Shown here in pieces: positions 42,082 through 54,700 of a stretch of DNA of 64,000 bases. The notes under the pieces are model-generated. The model had not been told where the DNA came from and searched no databases. It saw only the letters and a program-made list of their open reading frames with translations. The position numbers and the translations under genes were made by a program. The DNA is from Shigella phage A2: the sequence record OP197928. One strand, given 5' to 3'. The stretch's first letter is position 1, and the number at the start of each line of letters is the position of its first letter.

Positions 42082-44346
42082 TCATAATTTACAGGATGAA
42101 CAATCTTCAGCTTTTGGAGTTTCTATTTCATAATCATCAGTACCAGAACCGTCACGTGTATTATGATAATAGAAATTTTTTCCGCCAAAATACCAAAAAT
42201 ACAAAAGGTCATCAATCATTATTGACATTGGAACCTTTCCTTTTGGAAAAATCTGCGGGTCATAGTATGTATTCGCCGAAGCTGATTGACATACCCATTT
42301 AAGCATAATAGCTACTTGCGTAAGATAAGGTTTATTACCTTTCTTAGCTAATTTCCACGTATAATCATAGAGGTCTATGTTATGCTCAATATTGGGCACG
42401 ACTTGATTAAAGGAACCCTCTTTTGATTCTTTAACAGAGACTGGTCCACGTGGAGGCTCGATACCGTTTGTACTGTTAGAAACTTGGGAAGATGACTCAC
42501 ATGGCATAAGTGCTGATAATGTGCTATTACGGATGCCAAAGAGCTTAAGGTCTTCCCGCAGCGACGACCAGTCACAAACGTATTTTGGAGCTGCGATTTG
42601 GTCAATCTTTTTATTGTACCAGTCGATAGGTAATTCGCCTCGAGACCAACGAGTGTCTGAATAATATTCGCAAGGTCCTTTTTCTTTGGCGAGCTTAATG
42701 GATGCTTTAATGAGTCCATACTGTAATCTCTCAAATAGTTCATGTGTTAAATCGTTAGCATCTTCATAAGAAGCAAAGTTACTTGCCAGCCAAGCTGCAT
42801 AGTTGGTAACACCTACGCCAAGATTTCGACGCTTTTTAGCTTTTTCTGCTTCAGGAACCGGATATCCTTGGTAATCCAAAAGATTATCAAGAGCACGAAC
42901 CTGGACTTCTGCCAATTCATTAATTTTATCTTGGTCTTGCCAGTCAAAATTATCCAGTACGAATGCAGAGAGAGTACACAATCCAATTTCAGCATCAGGA
43001 CTATTCACATCATTTGTTGGAATAGCAATTTCACAGCACAAGTTACTCTGACGAATAGGTGCCTTTTCACGAATAAACGGAGTATAGTTATTCGTATTAT
43101 CAATGAACTGTACATAAATCCTTGCTGTTCCTGAGCGTTCAGTCATGAGCAATTCAAATAGTTCACGAGCTTTAATACGCTTTTTACGAATATTAGGGTC
43201 TTTTTCTGCGGCTTCATACAATTCACGGAAACGGTCTTGGTCTTTAAAATAAGAATAATAAAGCTCTCCGCCCATTTCATGGGGACTGAACAAAGTAATG
43301 TAATCGTTCTTTCCAAAACGTTCCATCATCAAATCATTCAGTTGAACACCATAATCCATATGACGAATGCGGTTTTCTTCTACGCCTTTGTTATTTTTCA
43401 AAACAAGAAGATTTTCAACTTCCAAATGCCAAATAGGATAATAAGCAGTAGCAGCGCCGCCACGAATTCCACCCTGTGAGCATGATTTAACAGCAGTCTG
43501 AAAATGTTTCCAAAAAGGAATAACACCAGTATGGCGTACTTCACCCATGCCAATCTTAGAACCTTCAGCACGAATCATACCAACGTTAATACCAATTCCA
43601 GCGCGTTTAGAGATATATTCAACAATTGAAGCGGAAGCCTTATTGATAGACTTTAATGAATCACCTGCCTCAATAACAACGCATGAACTAAACTGCCGGG
43701 TTGGAGTACGGCAACCAGCCATAATAGGAGTTGGCAATGAAATCTGTCGAGTAGATACTGCTTCATAAAAACGGATAACGTGTTTTAATCTATCAACAGG
43801 TTCATCTTGATGCAATGCCATTCCAATAGTCATAAATGCAAACTGTGGAGTTTCATAAATTTGACCAGTGGTTTTATCTTTAACTAGATATTTTTCTTTT
43901 AATTGCATCGCCCCGGAATAAGTAAATTCCATATCCCGCTCGTGCTTAATTTTTGATTCTAAAAATGTAATTTCTTCTGCAGAATATTTTGACAACAATT
44001 CAGGGTCGTATTTACCTTCATTTACACAGTAAGAAATATGGTCAATAAATGAACGTGGTTCATACTGCCCATAAACATGCTTACGAAGAGCGAACATTAA
44101 ACAGCGTGCAGCTACATATTGATAATCAGGCTCTTCAACTGAAATAGAATTCGCAGCAGCCTTAATTACAATGGTTTGAATGTCATCAGTTGTCATTCCA
44201 TCACGGAGATATGATTTAATATTTTCATATAATTCATAAGGATCTACAGATGTTCCTTCAGCTGCCCAAGATAAAACTTTAATAATTTTTTGCGGGTCAA
44301 AGCTCTGAGAAACACCACTACTTTTGATAACATTAATTAATTGCAT
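42082..44346 (-). CDS. nrdA: Ribonucleotide reductase large subunit NrdA
   Basis: 754 aa with class I RNR motifs; T4 NrdA size. Confidence 0.97.
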   Translation of the reverse strand: MQLINVIKSSGVSQSFDPQKIIKVLSWAAEGTSVDPYELYENIKSYLRDGMTTDDIQTIVIKAAANSISVEEPDYQYVAARCLMFALRKHVYGQYEPRSFIDHISYCVNEGKYDPELLSKYSAEEITFLESKIKHERDMEFTYSGAMQLKEKYLVKDKTTGQIYETPQFAFMTIGMALHQDEPVDRLKHVIRFYEAVSTRQISLPTPIMAGCRTPTRQFSSCVVIEAGDSLKSINKASASIVEYISKRAGIGINVGMIRAEGSKIGMGEVRHTGVIPFWKHFQTAVKSCSQGGIRGGAATAYYPIWHLEVENLLVLKNNKGVEENRIRHMDYGVQLNDLMMERFGKNDYITLFSPHEMGGELYYSYFKDQDRFRELYEAAEKDPNIRKKRIKARELFELLMTERSGTARIYVQFIDNTNNYTPFIREKAPIRQSNLCCEIAIPTNDVNSPDAEIGLCTLSAFVLDNFDWQDQDKINELAEVQVRALDNLLDYQGYPVPEAEKAKKRRNLGVGVTNYAAWLASNFASYEDANDLTHELFERLQYGLIKASIKLAKEKGPCEYYSDTRWSRGELPIDWYNKKIDQIAAPKYVCDWSSLREDLKLFGIRNSTLSALMPCESSSQVSNSTNGIEPPRGPVSVKESKEGSFNQVVPNIEHNIDLYDYTWKLAKKGNKPYLTQVAIMLKWVCQSASANTYYDPQIFPKGKVPMSIMIDDLLYFWYFGGKNFYYHNTRDGSGTDDYEIETPKAEDCSSCKL

Positions 44347-44663
44347 AAGTCCTCAACTTGAAAATCGTCTTTAAACAATCGGTTAACTATATGAGCTATT
44401 ATATCACCATGACACGGCTTTGGTTTACATGTGCATCCTAGCCTCATTCCACGTAAAGGCTCTAAATGTGCTTTAGTTATTTCTCCGGATTTAATTCGAC
44501 GTATAAAATCTTTTTTGAATAATTCAATGGCAGCCTCCCGGCTGCCAGCATCTTTACCGACGTAATTTCCCCAAAATGTACCACGGTGAATATTAACATC
44601 AAAGTCGGATTTATATTTATTCACTACTCGGCATATACGGCCTGCGCGGTTGTAAGTGTTCAT
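44337..44663 (-). CDS. Hypothetical protein (nrdA.1 position)
   Basis: 108-aa ORF with CTCKPKPCH cysteine cluster. Confidence 0.5.
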
Positions 44664-44892
44664 ATTGTTCTTCCGTTAAAACAGTAATATCGTAGTAACA
44701 GTCAGAAGAAGTTTTAACTGTGGAAATTTTATTATCAAAATACTCACGAGTCATTTTATGAGTATAATATTTTTTGCCATAAATGATAATAGGCTGTTCT
44801 GGTCCTGGAACTTCTAACTCGCTTGGATTAGGAAGTGTAAAAAGAACGACACCAGAAGTATCCTTAAATCGTAAAATCATATATCCTCTCAA
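44617..44892 (-). CDS. Hypothetical protein (nrdA.2 position)
   Basis: 91-aa ORF. Confidence 0.5.
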
Positions 44893-44903
44893 TTAAATTA
44901 AAA

Positions 44904-45764
44904 TTACACCGCCATCTTTCCTTTCAATACACCGTGGGACTGATAATCTTTGAGAACGAAATCTTTAGGCCTGAGTTTAAGAACATATTCCAATTGTTCT
45001 TTAGTAGAAAGATAACGGAATTTATAAGGCAATCCGCCTATTACCAGTTCACAAAGCTCTTTAGGTTCACGACGCAAAATTTCTTTGCATTGTTCTACAT
45101 GATTCATATAGATATGAGTATTACCACCAGAAAATATCAAATCTCCTGGAGTAAGATTACACATCTTAGCTACAATATGAACTAACGCAGCATATGATGC
45201 AATATTAAATGGAAGGCCGAGAAAAACATCTACTGATCGTTGATACCACTGCAAATCCAAATAGCCATTACGCACATTAAACTGATAGAACATATGACAA
45301 GGCGGTAATGCCATCTGCTTGATTTCAGCTGGATTCCATGCTGAAACGATTTGACGTCGATCAGTTGGTAATTTTTTAATACGATCAATAGTTTCAACTA
45401 ATTGATCCACACCACCGAAATCACGCCATTGTTTACCATATATAGGACCAAGTTCACCACTATGATATCCTAGGTCTTTAGCCTGGTTTTCATAGTTATC
45501 GTCCCAAATAGTTTTACCTTGAATAAGACTACCATGAGTGCGAAGACGTAAATCATTAACATTGGTAGAACCGGAAATAAACCATAAAAGCTCAGCAATG
45601 CATGCATTCCAGGCGAGCTTCTTAGTTGTTACTGCAGGAAAACCTTTGGTTAAATCCCATCGTAATTTAGTACCGAACAAAGCAATTGTTCCTGTGCCCG
45701 TTCGGTCATCGGTTTCATAGCCATTTTCAAAAATGTCTTTAATTAAATCTTGGTATTGTTTCAT
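44904..45764 (-). CDS. td: Thymidylate synthase, uninterrupted
   Basis: 286-aa continuous ORF; no intron. Confidence 0.97.
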   Translation of the reverse strand: MKQYQDLIKDIFENGYETDDRTGTGTIALFGTKLRWDLTKGFPAVTTKKLAWNACIAELLWFISGSTNVNDLRLRTHGSLIQGKTIWDDNYENQAKDLGYHSGELGPIYGKQWRDFGGVDQLVETIDRIKKLPTDRRQIVSAWNPAEIKQMALPPCHMFYQFNVRNGYLDLQWYQRSVDVFLGLPFNIASYAALVHIVAKMCNLTPGDLIFSGGNTHIYMNHVEQCKEILRREPKELCELVIGGLPYKFRYLSTKEQLEYVLKLRPKDFVLKDYQSHGVLKGKMAV

Positions 45765-45809
45765 TTAGTACCTTATATAAATTATAATACATTTTATGAA
45801 GCTAAATAA

Positions 45810-46169
45810 TCAATACGGTTTAGCATCAAATTTTCTCTCAATTTCAGGCGTGAAATATAATTCTTTACCGCGTTTGGAAAAGCGACCAATAATATGATAA
45901 TTATTCTCATCAAACGTGATATTACCAATATCCATAGCTTTCAACCAAATATCGATATTTCTATCCAGCTTTATATCAAAATTCCAATACGGAGAACTAT
46001 TACCGAAAATAATGCAAGCGGATTCAGTGAAACAACTGCTATAAATCTTGTCTTTAGGAACTACTAATTGATAGACACCTTTAATAAACTGAGGACCCTG
46101 CCACTTTGGCTGTTTCGTGTCTTTTTCTAATAGAATAGGGTAATAATTAAAATTCATATTTTCCGCCAC
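45810..46169 (-). CDS. Hypothetical protein inserted between frd and td
   Basis: 119-aa ORF with its own spacing; no recognisable domain. Confidence 0.5.
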   Translation of the reverse strand: MAENMNFNYYPILLEKDTKQPKWQGPQFIKGVYQLVVPKDKIYSSCFTESACIIFGNSSPYWNFDIKLDRNIDIWLKAMDIGNITFDENNYHIIGRFSKRGKELYFTPEIERKFDAKPY

Positions 46170-46177
46170 GTGTTATT

Positions 46178-47007
<830 letters not shown>

Positions 47008-47018
47008 ATTATCTCCTA

Positions 47019-47351
47019 TTAAAAAGGATCAGGAACATATCCACTAGCTTTAATCATTTTAATTAACGTTAACATTCCTTTGTTAACTGCTTGTGAGATT
47101 TCATCAAAAACTTCATCATTAAAAAGTTCTAGCACACCCTTCTGAACTTTTAATTTACAGCCAACAATTTCGTCATCGCCTATAGTAAATTCATTACCGC
47201 CAATTCCACCGAAAAACTTAATTACCCCAGTTAACTGTCTTCCACGAGAATATGGGTCATGTGATAAAGTAATATGAGTCACCCCAGGTACAGTTTTAAA
47301 TTGACAGCGAATGTTTACTTGAGAAATTCCAGTTACATGAATGTCAGACAT
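47019..47351 (-). CDS. Hypothetical protein (frd.2 position)
   Basis: 110-aa ORF. Confidence 0.5.
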   Translation of the reverse strand: MSDIHVTGISQVNIRCQFKTVPGVTHITLSHDPYSRGRQLTGVIKFFGGIGGNEFTIGDDEIVGCKLKVQKGVLELFNDEVFDEISQAVNKGMLTLIKMIKASGYVPDPF

Positions 47352-47361
47352 AATATTTTCC

Positions 47362-47604
47362 TCAAACAGACTTTTTCACAATTTTCCAATCAGCTTTAAA
47401 CTGATCAACATCAGAATGGTAAATCCAGAATCCTGCGCTTTCTCCATCTTCATAAAGAGGACATCCATCGCATTCATCTTCCCATCCCATATCACGCAAA
47501 AGACGTTCAGCTTTTTCAACAAGTTCAGAATCTTTACCGATGATATTAAAATACCATTTACCTTTAACTTCTGAATCTTTAATGCTCTGACGTTGTAATC
47601 TCAT
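47362..47604 (-). CDS. Hypothetical protein (frd.3 position)
   Basis: 80-aa ORF. Confidence 0.5.
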   Translation of the reverse strand: MRLQRQSIKDSEVKGKWYFNIIGKDSELVEKAERLLRDMGWEDECDGCPLYEDGESAGFWIYHSDVDQFKADWKIVKKSV

Positions 47605-47629
47605 TTTATTCTCCTTAGTTGATAGGGTA

Positions 47630-47659
47630 ATAGTATCACACTACTACCCTACTGTAAAC
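47630..47659 (-). promoter_or_regulatory. T4-type early promoter (-35 GTTTAC, -10 TACTAT)
   Basis: Plus GTAAAC 47654..47659 and ATAGTA 47630..47635. Confidence 0.5.
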
Positions 47660-48021
47660 TACTTTTTGAAAGTTTTTCGCAAAAGTTCAATGATTTCATC
47701 TACATTGTTTTCGTCAACAATGCAGTGAATTTTTGTTACGCCAGAAACCTTGTCTTCGACTTCATCTTCAGAAGTCGGTTCTTTATACTCACGAAAACAA
47801 TGAAATTCATCTTCGCAGACGTTGAAGTAAAAATGCTTTCCATTGGCGCATTCTACGTGTTTTACTACTTTAAATCCATCAGCAAAGAAAACTTCTTTAA
47901 CTTCAAACCATCCGCCATTTTCTTGAATAGCTTTAACTATTAATGAATTAGAACGCGGGCGATAATTAATAAATGTATCAATAAGTCTTGGAACAAGTTC
48001 GTACTTTTTATCAATATACAT
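47659..48021 (-). CDS. Hypothetical Cys/His-containing protein
   Basis: 120-aa ORF; HVECANGKHFYFNVCEDEFHCF suggests possible metal binding. Confidence 0.5.
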   Translation of the reverse strand: MYIDKKYELVPRLIDTFINYRPRSNSLIVKAIQENGGWFEVKEVFFADGFKVVKHVECANGKHFYFNVCEDEFHCFREYKEPTSEDEVEDKVSGVTKIHCIVDENNVDEIIELLRKTFKK

Positions 48022-51716: not shown

Positions 51717-54700
51717 ATGGCCGAGATTAAAAGAAAGTTCAGAGCAGAAGATGGTCTGGACGCAGGTGGTGATAAAATAATCAACGTAGCTTTAGCTGAT
51801 CGTGCCGTAGGAACTGACGGTGTTAACGTTGATTACTTAATTCAAGAAAACACAGTTCAACAATATGATCCAACTCGTGGATATTTAAAAGATTTTGTAA
51901 TCATTTATGATAACCGCTTTTGGGCTGCTATAAATGATATTCCAAAACCGGCAGGAGCTTTTAATAGCGGACGCTGGAGAGCATTACGTACCGATGCTAA
52001 CTGGATTACAGTCTCATCTGGTTCATATCAATTAAAATCTGGTGAAGCTATTTCGGTTAACACTGCAGCTGGTAATGATATTACATTTACTTTACCATCT
52101 ACCCCAATTGACGGTGATACTATCGTTCTCCAAGACATTGGAGGAAAACCTGGAGTTAACCAAGTTTTAATTGTAGCTCCAGTGCAAAGTATTGTAAACT
52201 TCAGAGGCGAGCAAGTACGTTCAGTACTAATGACTCATCCAAAGTCACAGTTAGTTTTAATTTTTAGTAATCGTCTGTGGCAAATGTATGTTGCCGATTA
52301 TAGTAGAGAAGCTGTCGTTGTAACACCAGCAAGTCTCTATCAGGCGCAATCTAATGATTTTATCGTACGTAGATTTACTTCTGCTGCACCAATTAATGTT
52401 AAACTTCCAAGATTTGCTAATCATGGCGATATTATTAATTTCGTTGATTTAGATAAACTGAATCCACTTTATCATACAATTGTTACTACATACGATGAAA
52501 CGACTTCAGTACAAGAAGTTGGAACTCATTCCATTGAAGGCCGTACATCAATTGACGGTTTCTTGATGTTTGATGATAATGAGAAATTGTGGAGATTGTT
52601 TGACGGGGATAGTAAAGCACGTTTACGAATTATAACGACTAATTCTAATATTCGTCCAAACGAAGAAGTCATGGTATTTGGTGCGAATAACGGAACAACT
52701 CAAACAATTGAGCTTCAGCTTCCAACTAATATTTCTGTTGGTGATACTGTTAAAATTTCCATGAATTACATGAGAAAAGGACAAACAGTTAAAATCAAAG
52801 CTGCCGGTGAAGATAAAATTGCTTCTTCAGTTCAATTGCTGCAATTCCCAAAACGTTCAGAATATCCGCCTGAAACTAAATGGGTAACTGTTCAAGAATT
52901 AGTTTTTAACGGTGAAACTAATTATGTTCCAGTTTTACAACTTGCTTATATAGAAGATTCTGATGGAAAATACTGGGTTGTACAACAAAACGTTCCAACC
53001 GTAGAAAGAGTTGATTCTTTGAATGATTCTACTAGAGCAAGATTAGGCGTAATTGCTTTAGCTACACAGGCTCAAGCTAACGTCGATTTAGAAAATTCTC
53101 CACAAAAAGAATTAGCAATTACTCCAGAAACATTAGCTAACCGTACTGCTACAGAAACTCGTAGAGGTATCGCAAGAATAGCAACTACTGCTCAAGTGAA
53201 TCAGAACACCACATTCTCTTTTGCTGATGATATTATCATCACTCCTAAAAAGCTGAATGAAAGAACTGCTACAGAAACTCGCAGAGGTGTTGCAGAAATT
53301 GCTACTCAGCAAGAAACAAACGCAGGAACAGATGATACAACCATCATTACTCCTAAAAAGCTTCAAGCTCGTCAAGGTTCTGAATCATTATCTGGTATTG
53401 TAACCTTTGTATCTACCGCAGGAGCTACTCCAGCTTCTAGTCGTGAATTAAATGGTACAAACGTTTATAATAAAAACACTAATAATTTAGTTGTTTCGCC
53501 TAAAGCTCTGGATCAGTATAAAGCTACTCCAACACAACAAGGTGCAGTAATTTTAGCAGTTGAAAGCGAAGTAATTGCTGGACAAAGCCAAGAAGGATGG
53601 GCAAATGCGGTTGTAACGCCAGAAACGTTACATAAAAAGACATCAACTGATGGAAGAATTGGTTTAATTGAAATTGCTACGCAAAGTGAAGTTAATACAG
53701 GAACTGATTATACTCGTGCAGTCACTCCTAAAACTTTAAATGACCGTAGAGCAACTGAAAGTTTAAGTGGTATAGCTGAAATTGCTACACAAGTTGAATT
53801 CGACGCAGGCGTCGACGATACTCGTATCTCTACACCATTAAAAATTAAAACTAGATTTAATAGTACTGATCGTACTTCTGTTGTTGCTCTATCTGGATTA
53901 GTTGAATCAGGAACTCTCTGGGACCATTATACCCTTAATATTCTTGAAGCAAATGAGACACAGCGTGGTACACTTCGTGTAGCTACACAAGTTGAAGCTG
54001 CTGCAGGAACATTAGATAATGTTTTAATAACTCCTAAAAAGCTTTTAGGTACTAAATCTACCGAATCGCAAGAAGGTGTTATTAAAGTTGCAACTCAAGC
54101 TGAAACCGTAGCTGGAACGTCAGCAAATACTGCTGTATCTCCAAAAAATTTAAAATGGATTGTGCAGAGTGAACCTACCTGGGCAGCTACTACTGCGATA
54201 AGAGGTTTTGTTAAAACTTCATCTGGTTCAATTACATTCGTTGGTAATGATACAGTCGGTTCTACCCAAGATTTAGAACTATATGAGAAAAATAGCTATG
54301 CAGTATCACCATATGAATTAAACCGTGTATTAGCAAATTATTTGCCGTTAAAAGCAAAAGCTGCTGATACAAATTTATTGGATGGTCTAGATTCATCTCA
54401 GTTCATTCGTAGGGATATTGCACAGACGGTTAATGGTTCACTAACCTTAACCCAGCAAACGAATCTGAGTGCCCCTCTTGTATCATCTAGTACTGCTACG
54501 TTTGGTGGATCAGTTTCGGCAAATAGTACATTAACTATTTCTAATACTGGAACGGCAACTCGTCTGATTTTTGAGAAAGGACCTCAAACTGGAACTAACC
54601 CAGCACAGACGATGACTATCAGAGTTTGGGGAAATCAGTTTGGCGGCGGTTCAGATACAACACGTTCTACTGTATTTGAAGTTGGTGATGAAACGTCTAA

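Follow-up and report, generated by a model that had tools for sequence, protein, structure and literature searches.

A constrained small gene in the frd-td interval of Shigella phage A2 belongs to a widespread family of T4-like phages that is missing from T4

In phage T4 (NC_000866), the frd gene for dihydrofolate reductase (DHFR) and the td gene for thymidylate synthase (TS) share 4 nt (ATGA), with no gene in between, in line with an earlier note on the DNA analyzed here. The layout differs in Shigella phage A2 (record OP197928), of which we analyzed a stretch of 64,000 nt, hereafter the window. The open reading frame (ORF) listing of the window places between frd and td a minus-strand ORF that runs unbroken over 45810..46169, as the note had described, and that would encode 119 amino acids (aa) if translated from GTG 46169. 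The note took this ORF to be an inserted, lineage-specific gene. Our analyses show instead that it is a member, under strong purifying selection, of a family that occupies the same slot in several genera. The gene is already catalogued, as phrog_1928 in PHROGs (no assigned function) and under the name RB32ORF229c in some records (RB32), and is functionally uncharacterised; literature searches on the ORF name and on the frd-td junction returned nothing relevant.

To ask whether the ORF behaves as a coding sequence, we made codon-level Nei-Gojobori comparisons between the copies of the window, T2, T6, the Mosigvirus phage Shf125875, and uncultured phages. The ratio of non-synonymous to synonymous substitution rates (dN/dS) lies between 0.03 and 0.06 at dS of about 0.12-0.9 among the window, T2, T6, and Shf125875 copies. 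Compared with the window, T2 gives a dN/dS of 0.033 (dS 0.22), T6 gives 0.060 (dS 0.12), and Shf125875 gives 0.061 (dS 0.66); the uncultured-phage copies, 63-66% identical, give 0.08-0.17 with dS saturated. The intergeneric comparison counts 28-34 synonymous changes and 9-11 non-synonymous ones. Given a dN/dS of 0.03-0.06, the ORF is a genuine gene under strong purifying selection. The earlier note had named a lack of coding signal as a reason to doubt the ORF; the signal is there, and the ORF is conserved in relatives.

The product matches the phrog_1928 profile with E=1.2e-35, its residues 8-115 aligning to profile positions 2-125 of 126. In its 115-aa form, it is 100% identical to YP_010075772.1 (PhiZZ30_241) of Serratia phage PhiZZ30 (MT176426), annotated as "hypothetical protein"; the cluster of this protein has 154 members, and all 20 of the 20 named members that we read carry the same label. 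A megablast search with the 801-bp region found the gene in 352 of the 536 phage records that it matched, and tblastn found homologues in 585 phage records. At 90% identity or more, 362 of these 585 belong to Tequatrovirus (including T2, T6, RB5, RB32, RB33, AR1, and Shfl2) and Mosigvirus, and the other 223, at less than 60% identity, are divergent copies from more distant Tevenvirinae that infect Klebsiella, Kosakonia, Raoultella, Proteus, Citrobacter, and other hosts. The family is compact nonetheless: when 1.84 billion representative proteins were scanned with full HMMER, 52 matched at E<=0.001, nearly all of them stand-alone proteins of 95-148 aa, and the family comes to about 45 clusters in all. 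Four giant matches were set aside as spurious, repeat-summed hits; P0046, P0051, and P0079 are surface proteins with SprB or MBG repeats, and P0082, which has no significant Pfam match, was treated in the same way. With a profile hidden Markov model (HMM) built from both branches of the family, the paralogous types A and B introduced below, we found no second copy in the window.

The position of the gene is as conserved as its sequence. In 14 of the 14 loci that we examined, the homologue lies between the DHFR and TS genes: T2, T6, RB33, and WilhelmHis, the Mosigvirus Shf125875, Kosakonia phage 305 (Kanagawavirus), Proteus phage ABTNLPp2 (Gelderlandvirus), the Klebsiella phages K65 and Biddle, Citrobacter phage Ursula, and four metagenomic contigs, including L013, the nearest outgroup. 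The slot is thus shared by T2, T6, RB32/RB33, about 70% of the Tequatrovirus records, Mosigvirus, Kanagawavirus, Gelderlandvirus, and Klebsiella T4-like phages, and inserted and lineage-specific is not the best description of the gene. What does stand of the proposed lineage-specific accessory is that the gene is uncharacterised and missing from T4; it is widespread, and probably the ancestral occupant of the slot.

Indeed, T4 is the exception. Searching the complete genome of T4, translated in six frames, with the same HMM yielded no member (best E=1.3), so that T4 has no orthologue at the junction, where the earlier note had suggested looking for one, or elsewhere. We then searched a phage collection with a 301-bp query from the T4 junction and read 60 rows evenly spaced down the ranking. 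About 5 of the 60 match the query in one piece, as T4 does (vB_EcoM_112, HY03, and G28 are others); about 40, including T2, T6, and RB14, have an insert of about 417 bp that holds the gene; and about 11, including fPS-65, pSs-1, and ELT1, have a 206-bp insert in which a 68-aa ORF, type C below, replaces it, as it does in roughly one sixth of the Tequatrovirus records. The contiguous T4-type junction is a minority state among Tequatrovirus records.

The sequence of the locus offers a simple route between these states. An exact 9-bp direct repeat, TAAATGAAA, flanks the gene on the minus strand: the left copy (46176..46184) covers the last frd codons and the stop, and the right copy (45759..45767) covers the td start codon. 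The two copies are 417 bp apart in the window, the frd/td junction of T4 contains only one, and removing the 417 bp between the repeats from the window sequence gives the T4 junction. A single deletion between the repeats can therefore turn a T2-type locus into that of T4. Since several genera have the gene in the frd-td slot, parsimony favors its loss in the T4 lineage. One feature weighs against it: the bases following the frd stop (ATGAAATAACAC) share 10 of 12 positions with the td start (ATGAAACAATAC), and such td-like bases could equally reflect an old insertion or duplication into a T4-like junction.

The same comparisons bear on where translation starts. The likely start codon is ATG 46157, which gives a type-A phrog_1928 coding sequence of 115 aa (45810..46157, minus strand) that begins with MNFNYYPILLEKD and ends in the stop codon 45810-45812, rather than GTG 46169. 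We favor the ATG because it is where the homologues start, as do nearly all annotated entries in databases, and because a Shine-Dalgarno-like GGCGG (46167-46163) lies 5 nt upstream of it; no comparable element is found upstream of the GTG. RB33, T6, and BASEL phages such as WilhelmHis have the coding sequence annotated as 348 nt from the ATG of MNFNYY, and in L013 this ATG overlaps the frd stop codon. The four-codon GTG extension (46158..46169, minus strand), which contains the GGCGG, is probably untranslated leader. The ORF reported in the earlier note is thus real, with its start probably 12 nt further downstream than given there.

Translation of the frd-td intervals of other phages showed that the slot often holds more than one gene. 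In many phages, a second ORF of about 115 aa (type B) lies directly 3' of the gene discussed so far (type A). Alignment shows the two types to be paralogs; type B and the Klebsiella copy of type A also match phrog_1928, with E values of 1e-29 to 1e-40. Type A, to which the window ORF belongs, follows the pattern ...QPKWQG..F.KG.Y...GRF.KRG..lYF.PE., and type B, which has an 18-residue insert, follows QKKWALVI.G..PTIEQYKRNP..Y.TIPHGLYE...GRFDKRGSEILF. Nine columns are invariant across both: L9, W19, G27, Y29, G91, R92, F93, K95, and G97. A third ORF of 68-69 aa (type C, MSNKLKVKDVP...), unrelated to A and B and assigned to phrog_9550, is present in some phages only, as in Yersinia phage fPS-65 (L011 554-760), Biddle (L006 3148-3354), and L013 (4670-4879); it lies just upstream of td in the fuller cassettes and occurs neither in the window nor in T4.

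The fullest arrangement, frd-A-B-C-td, is found in L013 and Biddle, and uncultured relatives carry a frd-A-B-(C)-td cassette that is fuller than that of the window. At the junctions that we read in L013, L002, and L003, neighboring frames overlap or abut, by way of ATGA or TAATG or with a gene starting within the one before it. In the ancestor, the order was probably frd-A-B-(C)-td, from which the T2 type kept A, the fPS-65 type kept C, and T4 lost all three. We also noticed annotation problems in these cassettes: Ursula has an intact type-A gene without annotation (L007 ~2470-2790, MSQVRISLIKEDKVQKKW...) and its annotated 150-aa coding sequence is an over-extended type B, while the type-A coding sequence of Biddle (L006 2440-2809) is annotated from an internal Met and loses the conserved N-terminal LxKEDxxQKKW.

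What might the protein do? Searches with the single protein, with 34 family members, and with the family profile gave no meaningful match in Pfam, NCBIfam, or PDB sequences, and the lack of a recognizable motif reported in the earlier note is borne out by the Pfam search. The profile searched against all PDB sequences with hmmsearch produced one match only, to an unrelated protein (E=1.9). AlphaFold2 models made with the family alignment are confident, with a mean per-residue score (pLDDT) of 82 for type A and 88 for type B and a predicted template-modeling score (pTM) of 0.77 for both. Beta strands dominate both models, alongside one longer helix; in type A, three strands are followed by a helix (H68-76) and then by a long hairpin (E86-96 / E99-104) that bears the motif G-R-F-x-K-x-G. 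The matches of a Foldseek search against BFVD were all proteins of other T4-like phages (PM2, Muldoon, Cronus, Ah1, and phiAS5) that are themselves uncharacterised. The median isoelectric point of family proteins is 8.5 and their grand average of hydropathicity (GRAVY) is negative; judged by sequence, the protein would be small, soluble, mildly basic, and cytoplasmic, with no catalytic motif. The predicted fold resembles an oligonucleotide/oligosaccharide-binding (OB) beta-barrel with one helix between strands, a likeness of the model that we do not take as membership of an OB family.

Our best guess is that the gene encodes a dispensable, early-expressed, cytoplasmic OB-like binding protein that is co-produced with DHFR and TS. 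Its position between frd and td, on their strand, makes co-transcription with the early/middle nucleotide-metabolism genes probable, and the overlap of its frame with frd and td in relatives suggests translational coupling. The product would be a binding module rather than an enzyme. Single-stranded nucleic acid would be the likeliest ligand, given the OB-like barrel, the mild basicity, and the invariant set of aromatic and basic residues (W19, Y29, R92, F93, and K95); contact may be made through W19, Y29, and the G-R-F-x-K-x-G beta-hairpin at residues 91-97. The protein may form a dimer or, in phages that also have paralog B, a heterodimer of A and B, and its role would be to modulate, not to catalyze, something tied to DHFR and TS or to the neighboring replication genes (32 and 59).

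The more specific proposal, that this is a nucleic-acid-binding OB-like accessory protein, is one that we put forward tentatively and that may well prove wrong. Several points weigh against it. OB-like barrels bind proteins and sugars too, making a nucleic-acid ligand only a guess, and the conserved hairpin could be purely structural. No sequence-level link to a characterised family emerged from Pfam, NCBIfam, or PDB sequences, and literature searches found no expression, interaction, or phenotype data.

A different idea, raised in the earlier note, that the gene acts on the host, also deserves consideration, and on balance we find it doubtful. A small early product could neutralize, or trigger, a host factor or defense, and its patchy distribution would then reflect host-range selection. 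Presence is indeed polymorphic in Tequatrovirus, where the junction has three alleles, and T4 is entirely without the family; the product is small, soluble, and devoid of a catalytic motif, and many small non-essential early genes of T-even phages are known to be of the host-interaction or counter-defense kind. However, strict synteny and overlapping frames across genera suit a role tied to the module better than they suit a shuffling counter-defense cassette, and the very low dN/dS argues against an arms-race protein.

That synteny could also mean that the OB-like barrel is an adaptor of the module for thymidylate and deoxynucleoside triphosphate (dNTP) synthesis, binding DHFR, TS, or gp32 instead of nucleic acid and scaffolding or regulating the co-translated enzymes. 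The slot between DHFR and TS, kept in every locus examined and often with overlapping stop and start codons, speaks for an adaptor, and the tandem A and B paralogs suggest a heterodimer. Yet the dNTP synthetase complex of T4 works without the family, as our search of the T4 genome and textbook knowledge together indicate, and some phages retain A only, C only, or none of A, B, and C; we therefore consider an adaptor unlikely. By analogy with RPA14/32, A and B might even form an unrecognised OB-fold heterodimer, co-translated with DHFR and TS, that tethers thymidylate synthesis to single-stranded DNA or gp32 at replication forks. This is a long shot; if true, the A+B heterodimer would be a dedicated link from dNTP synthesis to the replisome in most T4-like phages, lost by T4.

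Four BASEL records (WilhelmHis, TadeuszReichstein, FriedrichMiescher, and AdolfPortmann) label the gene "putative homing endonuclease". A free-standing homing endonuclease or its remnant would explain presence and absence relative to T4 through mobility, and compared with T4 the gene is an indel between the copies of the 9-bp direct repeat, in a region where T4 is rich in such elements (I-TevI, MobE, and SegG). However, Pfam finds no GIY-YIG, HNH, or LAGLIDADG domain in the window protein or in 34 family members, and the family HMM run against all T4 ORFs, including Seg, Mob, and I-Tev, gave no match better than the E=1.3 noted above. At 115 aa, the protein is about half the size of Seg and Mob proteins, and its predicted fold is OB-like, not that of a nuclease. 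Unlike sporadic homing endonuclease genes, it has been kept in place under purifying selection across genera. We regard this explanation as highly improbable and reject the label as unsupported, there being neither a nuclease domain nor similarity to T4 Seg, Mob, or I-Tev proteins.

Finally, the view that the ORF is no gene and merely happens to be open in an AT-rich intergenic spacer, for which the sole support is that the T2 GenBank record AY310907 does not annotate the ORF, merits virtually no credence and is ruled out by the codon-substitution comparison above, with homologues of 31-46% identity filling the same locus and a confident AlphaFold2 model also speaking against it.

Returning to the gene as a co-produced partner of DHFR and TS, we looked at its surroundings in the window. 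The minus-strand order is gene 32, frd.3, frd.2, frd.1, frd, the ORF, td, nrdA.2, nrdA.1, nrdA, the classical T-even layout. Upstream, frd occupies 46178..46762 on the minus strand (194 aa); the mechanical listing gives 46178..46789 (203 aa). The true start of frd is the internal ATG 46762 rather than the over-long 46789, compared with the 585-nt DHFR gene of WilhelmHis, and this ATG overlaps by 1 nt the stop of an upstream 81-aa ORF (46762..47007), as in the WilhelmHis annotation. Downstream, td (44904..45764, minus strand, 286 aa) is contiguous and has no intron, while that of T4 is joined from two pieces around I-TevI. The td gene of T6 is apparently interrupted too and followed by an I-TevI-like ORF, which appears to be mis-annotated in the T6 record AP018814 as "RNA polymerase sigma factor for late transcription". 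In L013, a 100-aa ORF with the Pfam domain DUF4326 lies just upstream of the gene for the ribonucleotide reductase large subunit (nrdA-like), in the position of the nrdA.1-like ORF of the window (108 aa, 44337-44663).

In T2-type loci, the ORF and td are separated by a 45-nt spacer that is missing from the Mosigvirus copy and from more distant relatives. A scan with a relaxed pattern found in this spacer, at 45779..45806 on the minus strand, a MotA-box-like element with a -10 sequence, TTTAGCTTCA-N10-TATAAT (or N12-TAATTT). It is a possible middle-mode promoter for td, with an imperfect core (AGCTT instead of TGCTT). The relaxed pattern occurs 7 times across the window, where 1.4 matches would be expected, with 6 of these on the minus strand, that of the gene. 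The canonical pattern (WWWTGCTTYA-N11-13-TANNNT) matches the minus strand at 53954, 50815, 33633, 15906 (strict), and 4758 (loose), and these are likely to be middle-mode promoters of the early/middle cluster. A generic scan for sigma-70 promoters and terminators gave no more matches than in shuffled sequence, and an Rfam scan of 44000-48000 gave none.

These results do not overturn current understanding, and the reasons for their importance are modest. They correct a T4-centered view of this locus: the overlapping frd and td of T4 are a reduced state, and most Tevenvirinae hold one to three small genes there. They also argue that the "putative homing endonuclease" label in GenBank records should not spread further. 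A family that is compact, syntenic, constrained, confidently foldable, and not found in T4 makes an easy target for knock-out in T2 or T6 or for addition to T4.

How does the gene compare with systems already described? Like the SegA-G and MobA-E genes, it sits in an intergenic slot between conserved genes and is an indel relative to T4. It shares strand, cluster, similar size, and variable presence with the small genes of the T4 gene 32-nrdA cluster, namely frd.1 (DUF5417), frd.2 (FRD2), frd.3, nrdA.1 (DUF4326), and nrdA.2; the family HMM run on T4 and the window shows them to be unrelated to it in sequence, and they are present in T4 whereas it is not. The predicted product resembles PriB, the SSB core, and the OB domains of RPA14 and RPA32 in its length of roughly 100-115 aa, in a predicted barrel-like fold with one helix between strands, in its mild basicity, and in having conserved aromatic and basic residues on a beta-hairpin. 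Unlike them, it has an extra N-terminal strand (type B also has an extra helix) and no profile link to solved structures. With phrog_1928/RB32ORF229c the comparison is one of identity: it is the same gene, with no difference, and it is found in the frd-td slot of RB32, RB33, RB14, RB51, T2, and T6 as well.
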